Source of the DNA: Terriglobia bacterium
Lineage (GTDB): Bacteria; Acidobacteriota; Terriglobia; Acidiferrales; UBA7541
DNA length: 64,000 nt
Reading direction: 5' to 3'
Assembly (NCBI GenBank): GCA_963695545.1
Contig: OY968796.1
Coordinates: 1,536,001 to 1,600,000, forward strand
The position numbers were made by a program, and so were the translations under genes. The notes beneath the pieces are model-generated. The model ran no database searches. It saw only the letters and a list, made by a program, of their open reading frames with translations, and had not been told where the DNA came from. The stretch's first letter is position 1. Each line of letters opens with the position of its first letter. Below, one piece after another: positions 212 to 40,591 of this stretch.

Positions 212-1936
<1,725 letters not shown>

Positions 1937-2255: not shown

Positions 2256-4040
2256 TCAGTGCGCGGCGTCGGACCGACGCCGGCCGAGCGCTTGTTTGCG
2301 CTCGAGCAAGCGGCGCAGCGCTTCGGCGCTTTCGGCGGATTTCGATTTCATCTGGACTTCGATTTCCGCCTGGATCGCCGCGAGTTCGGTTTCAAAGCGC
2401 AGACGGCGCAGCGTGCCGAGGCAACTTTCGGCTTCTTCCCAGGTGAAATCGCCGCCGGTCTCGAAAGCGATCTGGAACAGCAGGCGGCGATCGCGTTCTT
2501 CGAGCGCTGCGCCCAGCACGACAGCATCCGGTCGCGCATCCGAGGCATTGGAACCGAGGATCGACTCGAGCAGCGCTTCGAGGATGTGCTCGGTTTCAAG
2601 GCCGCGGTGCAAATCTTCGGAGCGAATGGCTTGTGCGAGTTGGCGGCGAAAGCCTTCGGACTCGAAGAGCAGCTGGATGAGCCGGCGTTCGACGGGTTTG
2701 CCCGGGCGAGCCACAAGTTCTGGATGCGTTTGGACTTTGTCGCGGCGCTCGGCTGCGGCGCGTTTCAAGGATTCACGCAGGACGGGTTCTTCGACGCGCA
2801 ACTGCTGCGCGATTTGGCCGGCCCATTCCGAGCGCAGCAGACGATTGGGGCTGCGCTGCACGTAGGGCAGAAGGAAGTTCACGGCGCGCAATTTTCCTTC
2901 GGCTGTGGTGAGATCCATTTGGCGTGCGCGCGCGATCAGATAGTCGAGATAGGGCGGCGCGGCTTCGAGAAGTTTGGTGTAAGCGGCAGCGCCTTGCGCG
3001 CGCAGAAAGGCGTCGGGATCTTTGCCGCCGGGCAATTGCAGCACGCGCACTTCAAAACCTTGTTCGAGCAAAAGCGTGAGCGAGCGCTCGGTGGCGGCTT
3101 GACCGGCGGAATCGGGATCGTAGTTGACGACGACGCGATGCGTGAAGCGGCCGAGCAGACGCGCCTGCGGTTCGGTGAGGCTGGTGCCGCAACTGGCCAT
3201 GACATTCGCGATTCCGGCGCGCGCGACGGCGATGGTGTCCATATAACCTTCGACCAGGATGGCGAAATCGCGCTGGCGAAGTCCTTCTTTGGCGCGATCG
3301 AGATGATAGAGCACGGCGCTTTTCGAGTAGATCGGCGTTTCGGGGGAATTCAGATATTTCGGCGGGTCGTCGCCAAGAGCGCGGCCGCCGAAGGCGATCA
3401 CTTTTCCCGATTCGTTGGCGATCGGGAAAATAATGCGGCGGCGAAAGCGGTCGTAGAGGCGGCCGGAGGAATCGCCGCTCGCGAGACCGGAAAGCGAGAG
3501 TAATTTTTCGGGATACTTCGCGCGAAGGACGCGCAGCAGCGCGTCGCCGCCGGAGGGCGCATAGCCCAGGCCGAAGCGCGCGATGGCCTGAGCGTCCAGG
3601 CCGCGATCTTCGAGATAGGCGCGCGCGGCTTTGCCTTCGAGCGTAGTTTCGAGTTGGCGCGAGAAAAACGTTTGTGCTTCGCGATGGATTTCGACGAGCG
3701 CGGTGCGCTGCTGATTTTCCTGCCGCTCTTCGGGACTGCGCTCGCGCGGCCGCGGCACGGCGATGCCGCATTTTTCCGCTACCGTGCGCACCGCATCCGG
3801 GAAGCCGCATTTTTCCATCTCCATCACGAACTGAAAAACGTCGCCGCCCACGCCGCAGCCGAAGCAATGGTAGATCTGCTTCACGGGATGCACCGCGAAC
3901 GAAGGCGTTTTTTCGGAATGGAAGGGGCACAGGCTGGTGAAATTCTGGCCGGATTTTTTCAGGCGCACGTATTCGCCCACCACGCGGACGATGTCCGCTT
4001 GCTGCTTGATCTTGTCGGCGAATGAGCCTGCTTCAGCCAT
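2256..4040 (-). CDS. dnaG: DNA primase
   Basis: Zinc finger CPFH..CFGC, KYLNSPET, TOPRIM motifs VEGYMD and YDPDSAG, KDPD. Confidence 0.97.
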   Translation of the reverse strand: MAEAGSFADKIKQQADIVRVVGEYVRLKKSGQNFTSLCPFHSEKTPSFAVHPVKQIYHCFGCGVGGDVFQFVMEMEKCGFPDAVRTVAEKCGIAVPRPRERSPEERQENQQRTALVEIHREAQTFFSRQLETTLEGKAARAYLEDRGLDAQAIARFGLGYAPSGGDALLRVLRAKYPEKLLSLSGLASGDSSGRLYDRFRRRIIFPIANESGKVIAFGGRALGDDPPKYLNSPETPIYSKSAVLYHLDRAKEGLRQRDFAILVEGYMDTIAVARAGIANVMASCGTSLTEPQARLLGRFTHRVVVNYDPDSAGQAATERSLTLLLEQGFEVRVLQLPGGKDPDAFLRAQGAAAYTKLLEAAPPYLDYLIARARQMDLTTAEGKLRAVNFLLPYVQRSPNRLLRSEWAGQIAQQLRVEEPVLRESLKRAAAERRDKVQTHPELVARPGKPVERRLIQLLFESEGFRRQLAQAIRSEDLHRGLETEHILEALLESILGSNASDARPDAVVLGAALEERDRRLLFQIAFETGGDFTWEEAESCLGTLRRLRFETELAAIQAEIEVQMKSKSAESAEALRRLLERKQALGRRRSDAAH

Positions 4041-27617: not shown

Positions 27618-27854
27618 AGGTTACTCCCTTTCAGTTTGCGCAATCGATTGCCCGGCAGCATGCGCTACGGGTATACGTTTACCTGAGCACGCGAGTCAAT
27701 ACCTTCCTGCAGGCAGGTGGGTGTAGCATCACAAAGCTTGAGGCCAATGGTATCGTCATCGATCCTGAGCGCGAGTCCGCGGTCGTAGGCGCGCCGCATT
27801 ACCGTGGCCTGTGCCGAATTCACGGTCTTCGTATCGAATGAGAAGGAATCACGA

Positions 27855-30221
27855 ATGACTTTGCGCGCATTCGCATGCCTATTGATCCTAACCGCTGCAA
27901 TTGCCGGCACTCCCCTGCGGGCCACGCCGGTCACAGCCGTAAGCAAACAAGCCGATGGCGTATCACTCACGATGCAGCCAGGTTTGCTGCGGTTACAGGT
28001 GATGTCCGACGCCGTAATCCGCGTAACCTATGCCGCGGGTAATCAGCTTCCACAACTCCAGAGTTATTCGGTCGTCGCAAAGCCCGACCCCGGCACGAAG
28101 TGGGATATGCGTGAAACGCCCGACGCTGTCATCGTCGAGACTCAATTCATAAAGGCGCGAGTGGATCGGAAGACCGGCGCTGTCGAGTTCCTGGATCGCA
28201 TGAATCATCCCATCCTCACCGAGAGCGCCGCCGGCAGAGACATTTCGCCCGCAATCGAAGCCGGCGTTGCGGGCACGCTCGTCCGCCAGTCATTTGTGCT
28301 CTCGCCCGATGAGGCCATCTATGGATTGGGTCAGCACCAACAGGGAATCTGGAACTACCGCGGCCACGCAGTTCGCCTCTTGCAGGAAAATCGAGAGGTC
28401 GGAGTTCCCGTAATCCTTTCCAGCAAAGGGTATAGCCTGCTCTGGGATAATCCGGCAGTTACGGACATCGATGTCGGCGTCCCAGCGCAGCCTGACGTCA
28501 TCCGCTGGACATCCGAAGTGGGCGACGCCATCGATTACTACTTCATCTTCGGTCCCACGCCGGAAGCCTCGATCCGTCACTACCGCGCACTCACGGGCGA
28601 AGCTCCGTTGATGCCCGAATGGCTTTTTGGTTTTTGGCAAAGTAAGGAACGCTATCGCACCCAAGACGAAGTTCTCGGCGTGGCGCGCCAATATCGCCAG
28701 CTCAACGTGCCGATCGACGGAATCATTCAGGATTGGCGCTATTGGCCCGACAACACCTGGGGGTCTCATCAGTTTGACCCCGCCCGTTATCCCGATCCAG
28801 CCGCGATGACCGCACAACTCCACGACATGCACTACCACATTCTGATTTCGGTGTGGCCGAAGTTCGACCTCGGCACATCCAACTTTCGGCAGCTGGAACA
28901 AGCCGGTGCAATGTTTGACCCGGTAATTCCGTATGTCTTCCCGCCAGGCCAGGGCAAATGGTACGACCCTTTCTCTTCCGCAGGTCGCGAGATCTATTGG
29001 AAGCAGATATCTTCCGAAATCTTCTCGAAAGGTTTCGACGGCTGGTGGCTCGATGCGCCCGAGCCGGAACTCTCCGGAAAGTGGGGCGAGTTCCGCGCCT
29101 TCCGAACGTCTGCCGGCCCCGGTGCACGGGTCTTCAATGCTTACCCCTTGATGCACTCGACCGGCATCTATCAGGGGCAGCGCGCTCAGACCGGCCAGCA
29201 ACGCGTTGTAATCCTCACCCGGTCAGCCTACGCCGGCCAACAACGCAATTCAGCCATCACCTGGTCGGGAGACATCCGCGGCACCTGGCAGGTCTTACGA
29301 GATCAAATTCCCGCAGGACTCAACTTCTCGGTCAGCGGCATCCCTTACTGGAATACCGACATCGGCGGATTCTTCGTCGACGCGAATCCCTCGGATCCGA
29401 GCTACGCGGAAATCTTCGCGCGCTGGTTCGAGTTTGGTTCGTTTTGCCCGATGTTCCGTGTTCATGGCAGCGCTCCCGACGGCGGTACCGGCCCGGGTAA
29501 GGAATATTGGCGCTTCGATGATGCGACACAAGCGATCTGGCGAACCTACGACAATCTGCGCTATCGCCTCATGCCCTACACGTATTCAGTTGCGTGGCAG
29601 GTAACCAGCGCTGGCAGCACCATCATGCGCCCTTTGATCATGGACTTTGCCGGCGACAAAGAAGTCCTCAACATCGGCGACCAATATCTGTTTGGCCCGG
29701 CAATCATGGTCAACCCGGTTACCGCTCAAGGCGCAACCTCGCGGAGGGTCTACTTGCCCGGTAAACTGGCCTGGTACGATTTCTGGACTGGTAAGTCCGA
29801 AGGCCACGGCCGTCATATCGACGCAGCGGCGCCTTTGAAAACCATGCCACTGTACGTTCGCGCAGGTTCAATCATTCCCATGGGCCCATTGCTTCAATAC
29901 GTCGGCGAGAAGCCTGCCAACCCAATCGAGCTTCGTATTTATCGCGGCGCGAACGGCTCGTTCAATTTATACGAAGATGAGGGTGACACATACCATTACG
30001 AGAAAGGCATTTACGCGACAATCCTGTTCACCTGGAACGAAGCAAGTCACACGCTGACCATCGGCGCGCGAAAAGGAAGTTTCCCAGGTATGCTGCAGCA
30101 GCGGACCTTCAACGTCGTCTTTGTGACTGCCAATCGCGGCGTCGGCGTAGACGTCACGACGAATCCCGACCGAACGATCACATATTCCGGCCGGTCGCTT
30201 TCCATTCGCGTCCCGAAATGA
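27855..30221 (+). CDS. GH31 glycosidase (alpha-xylosidase-like), secreted
   Basis: YGLGQ, GFWQSKERY, WWLDAPEP (nucleophile), WSGD, WNTDIGGF, MFRVHG, LYEDEGD; signal peptide. Confidence 0.9.
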   Translation: MTLRAFACLLILTAAIAGTPLRATPVTAVSKQADGVSLTMQPGLLRLQVMSDAVIRVTYAAGNQLPQLQSYSVVAKPDPGTKWDMRETPDAVIVETQFIKARVDRKTGAVEFLDRMNHPILTESAAGRDISPAIEAGVAGTLVRQSFVLSPDEAIYGLGQHQQGIWNYRGHAVRLLQENREVGVPVILSSKGYSLLWDNPAVTDIDVGVPAQPDVIRWTSEVGDAIDYYFIFGPTPEASIRHYRALTGEAPLMPEWLFGFWQSKERYRTQDEVLGVARQYRQLNVPIDGIIQDWRYWPDNTWGSHQFDPARYPDPAAMTAQLHDMHYHILISVWPKFDLGTSNFRQLEQAGAMFDPVIPYVFPPGQGKWYDPFSSAGREIYWKQISSEIFSKGFDGWWLDAPEPELSGKWGEFRAFRTSAGPGARVFNAYPLMHSTGIYQGQRAQTGQQRVVILTRSAYAGQQRNSAITWSGDIRGTWQVLRDQIPAGLNFSVSGIPYWNTDIGGFFVDANPSDPSYAEIFARWFEFGSFCPMFRVHGSAPDGGTGPGKEYWRFDDATQAIWRTYDNLRYRLMPYTYSVAWQVTSAGSTIMRPLIMDFAGDKEVLNIGDQYLFGPAIMVNPVTAQGATSRRVYLPGKLAWYDFWTGKSEGHGRHIDAAAPLKTMPLYVRAGSIIPMGPLLQYVGEKPANPIELRIYRGANGSFNLYEDEGDTYHYEKGIYATILFTWNEASHTLTIGARKGSFPGMLQQRTFNVVFVTANRGVGVDVTTNPDRTITYSGRSLSIRVPK

Positions 30222-30278: not shown

Positions 30279-31358
30279 GTGCGTTACAGAAAACTAGCGA
30301 TACTGGCGATTCCCGCCGCCCTCGCGATGCTCGCCGTGTCTCTCGAAACTTTCGGCCAGCGCGCGCCCAAATCCAAGCCGTCCCCGCTGATGGCTCAACT
30401 CGCCCGCTTCACCGCCTCCGACGTTCCGGCCCTCGGCCCCGCCGAAATCGCCGTCGCCCCCCGCTCGTGGGATCAACCCATCCCGCCCGGCTTGCCCGGC
30501 AACGGCGCGGCGCAGCACCCCATGCTTTACGTCGGCGAAGGCTACAACAAAATTTTCCTCGTCAACGGCGGCAAAATCATTTGGACCTATTCCGCCGGCA
30601 CAGGCAATGAATACGACGACGTCTGGATGCTCTCGAACGGCAACATTCTCTTCACCCGCATGCAATACGTCGCCGAGGTCACGCCCGCGAAGCAAGTCGT
30701 CTGGCGTTATGACGCTCCCGCCGGCACCGAAATCCACACCTGCCAGCCCATCGGCCTGAACAAAGTTCTCTTTGTCCTCAATGGCCTCCCGCCCAAACTT
30801 TTGGTCGTCAATATCAAAACCAACAAAATCGAAGTTCAACACGATCTTCCCGCTCCCAGCGCGACCGATACAAAAACCATCCACGCACAGTTCCGCCGCG
30901 TGCGATATACCGCGCAGGGCACCTACCTCTGTTCTTTTCTCGAGATGAACCAGGTCGTCGAATACGATAAGCATTTCAAGGAAATCTGGAAATACGAAAT
31001 CAAAAGCCCCTGGGCCGCCCTGCGCCTCAAAAATGGCGACACCCTGATCACCGACGAGCACGATATTCTCACGCGCGAAGTAAATCCCCAGAAAGAAACC
31101 GTCTGGGAACTCCGCCCCACCGATCTCCCCGAGCCCTTCCGCTACATCAACACGCAAAGCGCCACGCGCCTCGCGAATGGCAACACCATCATCTGCTCCC
31201 GCGGCGGCGACGGAAAAGGCCCCCAGCTCGTCGAAGTCACTCCCGACAAAAAAGTCGCCTGGGTCCTCTGGGACTGGTCCGACTTCGGCCCCGCCACCGC
31301 CGTCCAAATCCTCGATGACCCCGCCATCCCCGAAAAACCCGGCCAATCCCAACACTGA
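30279..31358 (+). CDS. Secreted beta-propeller repeat protein of unknown function
   Basis: AAAGGAG RBS, signal peptide; repeated units (LSNGNILF, LKNGDTLI, LANGNTII; EVTPAKQVVW, EVNPQKETVW, EVTPDKKVAW). Confidence 0.75.
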   Translation: MRYRKLAILAIPAALAMLAVSLETFGQRAPKSKPSPLMAQLARFTASDVPALGPAEIAVAPRSWDQPIPPGLPGNGAAQHPMLYVGEGYNKIFLVNGGKIIWTYSAGTGNEYDDVWMLSNGNILFTRMQYVAEVTPAKQVVWRYDAPAGTEIHTCQPIGLNKVLFVLNGLPPKLLVVNIKTNKIEVQHDLPAPSATDTKTIHAQFRRVRYTAQGTYLCSFLEMNQVVEYDKHFKEIWKYEIKSPWAALRLKNGDTLITDEHDILTREVNPQKETVWELRPTDLPEPFRYINTQSATRLANGNTIICSRGGDGKGPQLVEVTPDKKVAWVLWDWSDFGPATAVQILDDPAIPEKPGQSQH

Positions 31359-31463: not shown

Positions 31464-31492
31464 TTGACATTCCGCACTTGATCGACAAAGAT
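31464..31492 (+). promoter_or_regulatory. Putative promoter for riboswitch leader
   Basis: TTGACA 31464-31469, 17 nt, weak -10 AAAGAT; would start transcription just before the aptamer. Confidence 0.5.
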
Positions 31493-31498
31493 TCCCCA

Positions 31499-31549
31499 AA
31501 GGTGTTGGAGTTCACCGTAACCGCCCTACTGGGCAGATAACTCCTACGA
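31499..31549 (+). ncRNA. Fluoride (crcB) riboswitch aptamer, variant
   Basis: GGTGTTGGAGTTCACCGTAACCGCCCTACTGGGCAGATAACTCCTAC: P1 GGTG/CACC, pseudoknot GGAGTT/AACTCC, P2 GCCC/GGGC, AAC linker and CTAC tail as in the crcB motif. Confidence 0.85.
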
Positions 31550-31582
31550 GGGTTTTTTCGTGGTGAGGGGTTTTCTGCTTTT
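31539..31582 (+). terminator. Riboswitch expression-platform terminator
   Basis: AACTCCT (31539-45) pairs AGGGGTT (31566-72); ACGAG pairs TTCGT; 4-nt bulge; followed by TTCTGCTTTT; excludes the aptamer pseudoknot. Confidence 0.65.
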
Positions 31583-31684
31583 GCGCTCGCTCGCTTCTCC
31601 ATTTTTCTCTCAATTCCCCTTCTTCCGCCTCGTTCTCTGTCCGCGCGCGATTGCTGAAGATCCGCGTTCGCCGGCGAAAATTGC

Positions 31685-34644: not shown

Positions 34645-34685
34645 GTCACGCTGCATACGACCAGCAGGAGTGGCTAAAATCATGA
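34623..34685 (+). pseudogene. higB: C-terminal remnant of a HigB-family toxin
   Basis: Frame starting 34623 reads LYIRHILSHAAYDQQEWLKS*, matching the usual HigB ending (YIRH.LTH.EYD...W); stop overlaps higA ATG (ATGA); upstream of 34623 the frame is unrelated. Confidence 0.75.
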
Positions 34686-35068
34686 TTGCAGTGCCCGAAA
34701 AATACGCGCTCGAAGTCGGCTCCCCCACGCCGATCAAATCCGAGCACCAACATGACCAATTCCTTTCCGTCTTGGACAAGCTGGCCGGCAAGGAACGTCC
34801 AACGCCTGAAGAAGTGAAATATGCCGAAGTCTTGATCACACTGATCGAAGCGTATGAAGAAGAGCGTTACGCCATTCCCGAAGCTCCCCCGATCGAAATC
34901 CTCCGCGCATTGATGTCCGCCAACGATCTCCGTCAAAAAGACCTCGTCCCGATCTTCGGCTCCGAAAGCATCGTATCCGAAATCCTCCACAAGAAACGCG
35001 ACCTCAACAAATCCCATATCTCCAAATTGAGCAAGCGATTCCAGATTTCTCCCGCCGCGTTTTTCTAA
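34682..35068 (+). CDS. higA: HigA-family HTH antitoxin
   Basis: LITLIEAYEEE, LMSANDLRQKDLVPIFGSESIVSEILHKKRDLNKSHISKLSKRF; AGGAG upstream. Confidence 0.88.
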   Translation: MIAVPEKYALEVGSPTPIKSEHQHDQFLSVLDKLAGKERPTPEEVKYAEVLITLIEAYEEERYAIPEAPPIEILRALMSANDLRQKDLVPIFGSESIVSEILHKKRDLNKSHISKLSKRFQISPAAFF

Positions 35069-40514: not shown

Positions 40515-40591
40515 GGGCCTGTAGCTCAGGTGGCTAGAGCGCACCCCTGATAAGGGTGAGGTCGGTGGTTCAAGTCCACCCAGGCCCACCA
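40515..40591 (+). tRNA. tRNA-Ile(GAT)
   Basis: GGGCCTG/CAGGCCC acceptor stem, CACCC-CTGATAA-GGGTG anticodon arm, GGTTCAAGTCC T arm, encoded CCA; TG-c-TAAAAT upstream at 40478-40486. Confidence 0.97.

Follow-up and report, generated by a model that had tools for sequence, protein, structure and literature searches.

What does a fluoride riboswitch control when the gene behind it encodes a dynamin-like GTPase and not, as for a typical crcB-motif riboswitch, a fluoride exporter, and what does such an RNA sense when a tertiary pair of its aptamer is exchanged? Both questions are raised by a single locus of the window, by which we mean the whole stretch of 64,000 nt analysed here. The sequence-only reading of this DNA had proposed a fluoride-type riboswitch with a reciprocal U/A swap next to the ion pocket, possibly with altered affinity or ligand. 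In the light of the results below, we consider it likely that the element is a transcriptional ON switch for the dynamin-like gene, and probably also for the AAA_16-type gene behind it, that the swap is neutral with respect to the ligand and that the GTPase is a member of the fluoride regulon. The regulated gene is the more notable content of the locus than the swap.

Identification of the aptamer

A cmscan search of the whole 64-kb window retrieved the fluoride family RF01734 (Rfam 15) at 31492-31553 of the forward strand; the match reaches 42.0 bits (gathering score 34) and spans model positions 1-64 of 64. As its E-value (2.9e-8) was computed for the whole 64-kb window, the match is far beyond chance; apart from it, just one Rfam match in the window exceeds its gathering score, a tRNA at 40515-40588. 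The Infernal search that the sequence-only reading had proposed as a check on its fluoride-type assignment thus returned a full-length hit above the cut-off. The crcB architecture described there (P1, pseudoknot and a helix called P2, which is P3 here) was likewise recovered from both sequence and cmscan, every element at the same coordinates (Table 1). The pseudoknot consists of six standard pairs that join the P1 loop to the 3' tail.

Table 1. Features of the riboswitch locus, in positions of the window
Feature	Position	Strand	Evidence and remarks
Putative sigma-70-type promoter	31464-31492	+	TTGACA 31464-31469, 17-nt spacer, AAAGAT 31487-31492
Fluoride riboswitch aptamer, RF01734	31492-31553	+	Covariance model, sequence
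P1	31501-31504 with 31513-31516	+	GGUG with CACC; sequence and model
Swapped tertiary pair	U31505.A31535	+	Positions 6/38
Pseudoknot, 6 bp	31507-31512 with 31539-31544	+	GGAGUU with AACUCC; sequence and model
P3	31523-31526 with 31531-31534	+	GCCC with GGGC; sequence and model
Expression platform, proposed intrinsic terminator	31536-31582	+	Bulged hairpin 31536-31575 and U-rich tract
A40.U48 positions	A31537 and U31545	+	Sequence
Second conserved leader island	31639-31666	+	GC-rich; island of identity shared by G000 and G066, about 20-45 nt ahead of the start codon
Dynamin-like GTPase, 686 aa	31685-33745	+	Dynamin_N PF00350, E 4.4e-21
AAA_16-type ATPase, 276 aa	33814-34644	+	PF13191, E 1.5e-7, exactly at the cut-off

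The structure used for comparison is PDB 4ENC, the Thermotoga petrophila fluoride aptamer of Ren et al. (2012). The window aptamer shares with this crcB-motif riboswitch the same P1, P3 and 6-bp pseudoknot, and it keeps the conserved bases aligned with U7, G8, G39, A40, U41 and U48. The two bases of the reversed Hoogsteen pair A40.U48 are A and U in the window and in all 150 aligned aptamers (see below), while position 42 is an A, giving U-A rather than U.G, likewise in 35 of the 150. The difference lies at positions 6 and 38. The base following P1 is a strongly conserved A in the Rfam consensus and the one following P3 a strongly conserved U; at these places the window carries U31505 and A31535. 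According to the available parts of papers citing the T. petrophila structure, the two positions form the reversed Watson-Crick pair A6.U38 there. The swap is therefore truly reciprocal, as the sequence-only reading had it: both partners of this pair are affected, and the tertiary pair appears to be present in the window in a covarying form, U.A instead of A.U. Judged from its sequence, the window element is a genuine fluoride riboswitch with an ordinary mechanism.

Covariation of the 6/38 pair

Aptamers were gathered from three sources. In source (a), RF01734 was searched in 61 genomes of the window's class, its own included, with 39 matches in 31 of the 61; from these, 33 aptamers were read in the 31 loci returned, and six matches without a locus were left out. 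Source (b) was a scan over a single genome of each species; its pattern prescribed the common pseudoknot sequence but allowed any base at positions 6 and 38, and it gave at least 119 loci, of which 115 with an intact P1 were kept and four with a mispaired P1 were dropped. The leaders of orthologues of the dynamin-like gene made up source (c). After removal of duplicates, the three sources together held 169 distinct aptamers, among them two from genomes flagged unpublished (L007 of G013, A/U, and L161 of G204, U/A).

Positions 6/38 read A/U in 135 of the 169 aptamers, U/A in 30, G/C in two, U/U in one (L162) and A/G in one (L130), and A/A occurs in none of them; the U/A count of 30 comes from a sample weighted towards the window's lineage. 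Source (b) alone has U/A in 12 of 115 aptamers among the matches listed, 11 of these 12 carrying Acidobacteriota names (Terriglobales, Acidobacteriaceae, Bryobacteraceae, Vicinamibacterales, Sulfotelmatobacter and Acidiferrales) and one an Eisenbacteria name. We aligned 150 aptamers, comprising all 54 from sources (a) and (c) and the first 96 of the 115 from (b) in locus order. All 12 tested pairs are kept in this alignment, with 99.9% of cells paired (P1 100%, pseudoknot 99.9%), and the whole-structure covariation score was reached by none of 500 shuffles. For the 6/38 pair the alignment counts 118 AU, 29 UA, two GC and one other, although these are counts of sequences and not of evolutionary events, whose number is overstated by the kinship of the sequences.

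The swap is thus, as far as aligned sequences can tell, a recurrent natural covariation that is not peculiar to the window locus, and U/A is apparently the usual state of the 6/38 pair in one, mainly acidobacterial, lineage of fluoride riboswitches. Descriptions of covariation in RF01734 name P1, the pseudoknot and P3 only, in the available parts of PMC12667848 and PMC7657543. A two-sided exchange of A.U for U.A, and rarely for G.C, provides natural evidence for a long-range tertiary pair beside the fluoride pocket. One aptamer, at 3658-3705 on the reverse strand of locus L162 (genome G079), carries U/U at 6/38, is otherwise typical and precedes an orthologue of the dynamin-like gene. Since this is a natural aptamer, complementarity at 6/38 is not absolutely required.

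The Rfam model handles positions 6 and 38 as independent conserved bases. The U/U aptamer L162 scores 50.6 bits, the highest value in its group of dynamin-orthologue leaders, because its U38 fits the Rfam consensus. The U/A aptamer L169, which differs from it solely at position 38 and at one loop base, scores 41.4 bits, so RF01734 charges about 9 bits for A38. Other swapped members come close to the cut-off (L155 with 34.7 and L178 with 35.8 bits), and L161 is not reported at the cut-off. As the model penalizes the swapped subclass, annotation pipelines are expected to under-call fluoride riboswitches in Acidobacteriota.

A second aptamer subtype was observed in the same bacterial family. Its position 7 is occupied by A and not by U (GGCGAAGG), its P3 is long (CUGUCC...GGACAG) and its GAUGAC is preceded by an additional AU; with the Rfam model it scores only 36-40 bits. 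It occurs at L182, L184, L185, L187, L188, L190, L192 and L193, and also at L026, L028 and L030, and heads operons that start with genes for a Na+/H+ exchanger and Usp. Three further loci (L181, L183 and L186) hold aptamer-like sequences that start with GGGCAAGGAGUU and stay below the Rfam reporting cut-off; these are probably genuine riboswitches missed by the model, because they occupy the same operon position as the second subtype.

The ligand of the swapped aptamer

The genome of the window contains a second RF01734 match (39.7 bits) with the same U/A swap, and this riboswitch precedes genes for CrcB (PF02537, E 1.3e-29) and a double DUF190 protein. In two genomes of the same genus (L020 and L023), swapped aptamers stand before crcB-like ORFs. 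The closest relative with an orthologue of the gene downstream of the window riboswitch is G066 (L152), whose dynamin-like protein is 76% identical to that of the window and whose aptamer is one linker base apart from the window's. There, the aptamer is followed by the dynamin-like gene, then by genes for CrcB (E 1.4e-29) and DUF190, and no second riboswitch was found in the L152 locus. The window riboswitch itself is therefore tied to fluoride-resistance genes indirectly, through both its own-genome paralogue and the orthologous leader of G066. The swapped aptamer would thus control the canonical fluoride channel in several settings.

It could still be argued that the swap re-tunes the aptamer, either to a different ligand or to a clearly different affinity or kinetics for fluoride. 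The 6/38 pair adjoins the ion pocket and is reported, in the available part of a simulation preprint, to form only with the Mg-fluoride cluster bound; the swap is penalized heavily by the Rfam model (L162 against L169) and is concentrated in one phylum, so that it could be an adaptation. We nevertheless regard such re-tuning as distinctly improbable, given that the same type of swapped aptamer precedes crcB at L002, L020 and L023 and crcB operons at L152 and elsewhere, that every other conserved aptamer position is retained, and that a strict two-sided exchange that passes A/A by has the look of neutral base-pair covariation. A change of ligand in particular is very unlikely; a modest shift in affinity may accompany the swap. 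The possibility of another ligand, raised in the sequence-only reading, was rejected on this association of swapped aptamers with crcB, in the own genome as in relatives, from which fluoride is almost certainly still the predicted ligand of the window riboswitch.

Promoter and expression platform

The putative promoter ahead of the aptamer would place the start site near 31497-31500. A consensus scan for promoters and terminators between 31200 and 31900 retrieved nothing on the forward strand. It missed the promoter because the -10 element, AAAGAT, matches the consensus at three of six positions, and it missed the hairpin of the platform because the stem is bulged, with G.U pairs, and the U-tract is interrupted. 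The sole call of the scan in this interval, a reverse-strand stem inside the aptamer, is at chance level and was discarded.

A hairpin at 31539-31572 with a U-tract, sequestering the pseudoknot strand, had been described from the sequence; it was found at that place, where the A31539-U31572 hairpin lies within the minimum-free-energy fold, and it fits an ON switch. In this fold, 31560-31575 pairs with G39 and A40 and with the complete 3' strand of the pseudoknot. The segment 31536-31577 folds with -13.5 kcal/mol (z -2.4), a value that five of 200 shuffles equalled or bettered. Folded whole, 31492-31600 is no better than its shuffles (z -0.31), the pseudoknot being outside the fold model. The U-rich tract UUUUCUGCUUUU (31571-31582) is partly overlapped by the hairpin.

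From these elements we infer the following mechanism. Transcription would start at the TTGACA/AAAGAT promoter, a few bases ahead of P1. Without fluoride, the hairpin 31536-31575 would capture AACUCC (31539-31544) together with G39 and A40, and the U-rich tail would stop transcription ahead of the gene, as suggested by sequence, folding and conservation. With fluoride, by analogy with studied systems, a Mg-fluoride cluster would hold both tertiary pairs and the pseudoknot in place, the hairpin would be blocked and the polymerase would read through. The U31505.A31535 swap would preserve the reversed Watson-Crick tertiary pair by covariation and leave the ligand unchanged. In known crcB-motif riboswitches, a hairpin overlaps the 3' strand of the pseudoknot in a like manner, with a like ON logic; the mechanistic reference is the Bacillus cereus crcB transcriptional riboswitch, as presented in the available part of PMC8752731.

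The strongest support for the platform is the footprint of identity between the genome of the window (G000) and G066. Identity starts just upstream of TTGACA, sequence further upstream being unalignable, continues at about 100% through aptamer, hairpin and U-rich tract to about 31582, and then collapses. Promoter, aptamer and hairpin hence form one block of nearly 100% identity between flanks that cannot be aligned, in front of proteins that are 76% identical. An equivalent hairpin, likewise sequestering the pseudoknot 3' strand, was also found in the leaders L153, L155 and L174, in which a GAUGACUCCU segment pairs with a downstream AGGAGUUGUC-like segment and is followed by a U-rich stretch. 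In the leaders L165-L167 and L171, the competing hairpin is not followed by a clear U-tract, so termination is possibly not the sole or general mechanism.

Instead, a functional aptamer could act through Rho-dependent termination. It could also control translation or the stability of the mRNA by way of the long 132-nt leader and the second conserved island within it, which lies just ahead of the start codon and may itself be a hairpin. These alternatives would agree with a U-tract that is weak and interrupted, a bulged stem, the lack of a scan-called terminator and the orthologous leaders without a U-tract. Against it, the G000/G066 identity ends right after the U-rich tract, as expected for the end of a functional unit, and hairpin and pseudoknot strand share sequence just as they do in those transcriptional fluoride riboswitches that have been studied, an overlap between terminator and aptamer that is described as conserved (PMC12667848, available part). 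We consider a platform of this other kind unlikely. We have high confidence in the ON logic of the window riboswitch and moderate confidence in intrinsic termination as the mechanism of its platform.

The same footprint bears on whether the element is a decaying relic without regulatory role, as its score of 42 bits, compared with 50-56 bits in many relatives, and its unusual downstream gene might suggest. However, the covarying pair accounts for the low score (L162 against L169), no helix is disrupted, the module is nearly identical in G066 despite diverged flanks, and a riboswitch accompanies the gene in 26 of 29 orthologue loci. We give this reading almost no credence and rejected it on the conservation footprint.

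The regulated gene and its neighbours

The GTPase motifs GRVSSGKS, DTPG and SKAD (the G1 P-loop, G3 and G4) are present in the dynamin-like protein and vary hardly at all among 60 homologues. The AlphaFold2 model computed from these homologues (mean pLDDT 79.9) shows the layout of a dynamin-like protein, with the GTPase domain at about 201-395 between an all-helical N-terminal part (13-197) and an all-helical C-terminal part (397-680). Pfam searches with the N-terminal 200 and the C-terminal 286 residues at E up to 5 returned only sub-threshold noise (RRM_YTH1, Apolipoprotein and others), so that neither region has a Pfam family. In a Foldseek search against the PDB, the top ranks were taken by IniA (6J72, E 1e-16), Nostoc BDLP (2J69/2J68) and the Campylobacter DLP pair (5OWV), with probability 1.00 and low TM-scores of 0.27-0.36. 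On this model, the product is predicted to be a membrane GTPase of the BDLP/IniA type. At least 120 metagenomic homologues with more than 50% identity were found, under names such as 'dynamin family protein [Candidatus Acidoferrales bacterium]'.

With the known bacterial dynamin-like proteins, i.e. IniA of M. smegmatis (6J72/6J73), Nostoc BDLP (2J68/2J69), C. jejuni DLP1/DLP2 (5OWV) and LeoA (4AUR), the window protein shares the Dynamin_N GTPase domain and helical bundles (Foldseek E 1e-16 to 1e-7). It differs from them in sequence (14-20% identity, TM 0.27-0.36), and its domain arrangement is different or uncertain. Like known paired proteins of this kind, relatives of the window protein often have a second dynamin-like paralogue in their operon. 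A further difference is that the helical N-terminal region of 190 residues also exists as a separate ORF. Such ORFs, of about 180-220 aa, match the region (query about 10-150) with 40-52% identity in G115, G100, G107, G174, G106, G150 and G023 and belong to no Pfam family; the one in G023 comes after a fluoride riboswitch (L028).

The AAA_16-type gene lies 69 nt downstream of the dynamin-like gene on the same strand and is probably the second gene of the riboswitch unit, as gene spacing and order suggest. Right after it, at 34670-35068 on the forward strand, is an ORF of 132 aa with no Pfam match, whose product looks like an HTH antitoxin-type protein; this ORF was not found behind the dynamin-like genes of relatives. 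Upstream in the window are genes for a GH31 glycoside hydrolase (27804-30221) and a Mal s 1-like protein (30279-31358), both on the forward strand and unrelated to the riboswitch unit. A tRNA gene precedes the riboswitch in G066 instead of these two neighbours.

Fluoride riboswitches and dynamin-like genes in relatives

Matches to the dynamin-like protein with E up to 1e-20 occur in 46 of the 201 genomes searched from this order, and a single family accounts for all of them. The best 30 of these matches became loci, comprising the window's own and 29 foreign ones, and the near-full-length matches in G146 and G135 were left out. A fluoride aptamer heads the dynamin-like gene or its operon in 26 of the 29 orthologue loci, 22 of these aptamers reaching the Rfam cut-off and four being recognized by sequence pattern only. 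In 14 loci, an RF01734 match at or above the cut-off lies 130-170 nt upstream of the orthologue, and in L161 the upstream aptamer was found by pattern only. These 15 directly preceding aptamers all have U6, with A38 in 14 and U38 in one (L162).

For the other 14 loci, about 5.2 kb of upstream DNA was searched (2.3 kb for L194, at a contig end). Eight of them have an RF01734 match at or above the cut-off on the same strand, 1.8-4.7 kb upstream, and a recognizable aptamer below cmscan reporting at the cut-off is present in L181, L183 and L186. No aptamer was detected within the searched DNA of L189, L191 and L194; the first two share their gene order with L190, whose riboswitch sits 4.7 kb upstream, at the limit of the searched DNA. 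Where the operon is long, genes for a Na+/H+ exchanger and Usp come next after the riboswitch; between these and the orthologue, four loci also have genes for a metallophosphoesterase, an enolase, a HEAT-repeat protein and a second dynamin-like protein. The Pfam assignments of these partners (Na_H_Exchanger, Usp, Metallophos, enolase, HEAT_2 and a second Dynamin_N) refer to the proteins of L188 and L189. The orthologue is followed by an ORF with a CrcB-type N-terminus, as in the Pfam-verified CrcB of L152, in 15 of the 29 loci, and directly by a homologue of the AAA_16 gene (tblastn, 35-53% identity) in ten.

The classical fluoride regulon, as given in the available part of a 2024 review (PMC11139923), comprises the exporters CrcB/Fluc and CLC-F, Na+/H+ antiporters, pyrophosphatase, HAD phosphatases, enolase, formate hydrogen lyase and chorismate mutase. 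In a similar way, the operons of the relatives carry CrcB, DUF190, the Na+/H+ antiporter, Usp and enolase. The lists in the same part of the review include neither dynamin-like GTPases nor the AAA_16 ATPase or the HEAT-repeat protein, and no GTPase is mentioned in that text. Our literature search retrieved no link between fluoride riboswitches and dynamins, an earlier listing being possible in founding papers or supplements beyond its reach, and no description of fluoride control for the known bacterial dynamin-like proteins. The BDLP/IniA-type GTPase would be co-transcribed in relatives with CrcB, DUF190, the Na+/H+ antiporter, Usp and enolase. The GTPase hence appears to belong to the fluoride stress regulon of the family, in which the loci point to it as a consistent member.

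Fluoride toxicity may have a side that concerns the membrane, as the place of a dynamin-like GTPase beside CrcB, enolase and Na+/H+ antiporters suggests. Metal-fluoride complexes inhibit GTPases. We tentatively propose, as something possible rather than probable, a so far undescribed arm of the acidobacterial fluoride response, in which a module of one or two dynamin-like proteins, sometimes with HEAT-repeat and AAA_16 proteins, would be co-regulated with CrcB by fluoride riboswitches, and in which the U.A pair is fixed within this lineage and may tune folding kinetics or the fluoride threshold. When HF flows in, such a module might serve to repair or reshape the membrane; alternatively, it might replace a GTPase activity poisoned by metal-fluoride complexes.

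Some genomes hold closely spaced fluoride aptamers. Two complete aptamers stand in tandem, about 25 nt apart, in L013 (G009, 1420-1572, reverse strand) and L015 (G035, 1510-1664, forward strand); the first of each pair has its own terminator-like hairpin and U-run, and a gene for a 389-aa membrane protein lies downstream. In G025, contig C3 has three fluoride riboswitch matches within 7.5 kb (862402-869875), one of them before an orthologue of the dynamin-like gene (L025), and this region looks like a riboswitch-dense fluoride island.
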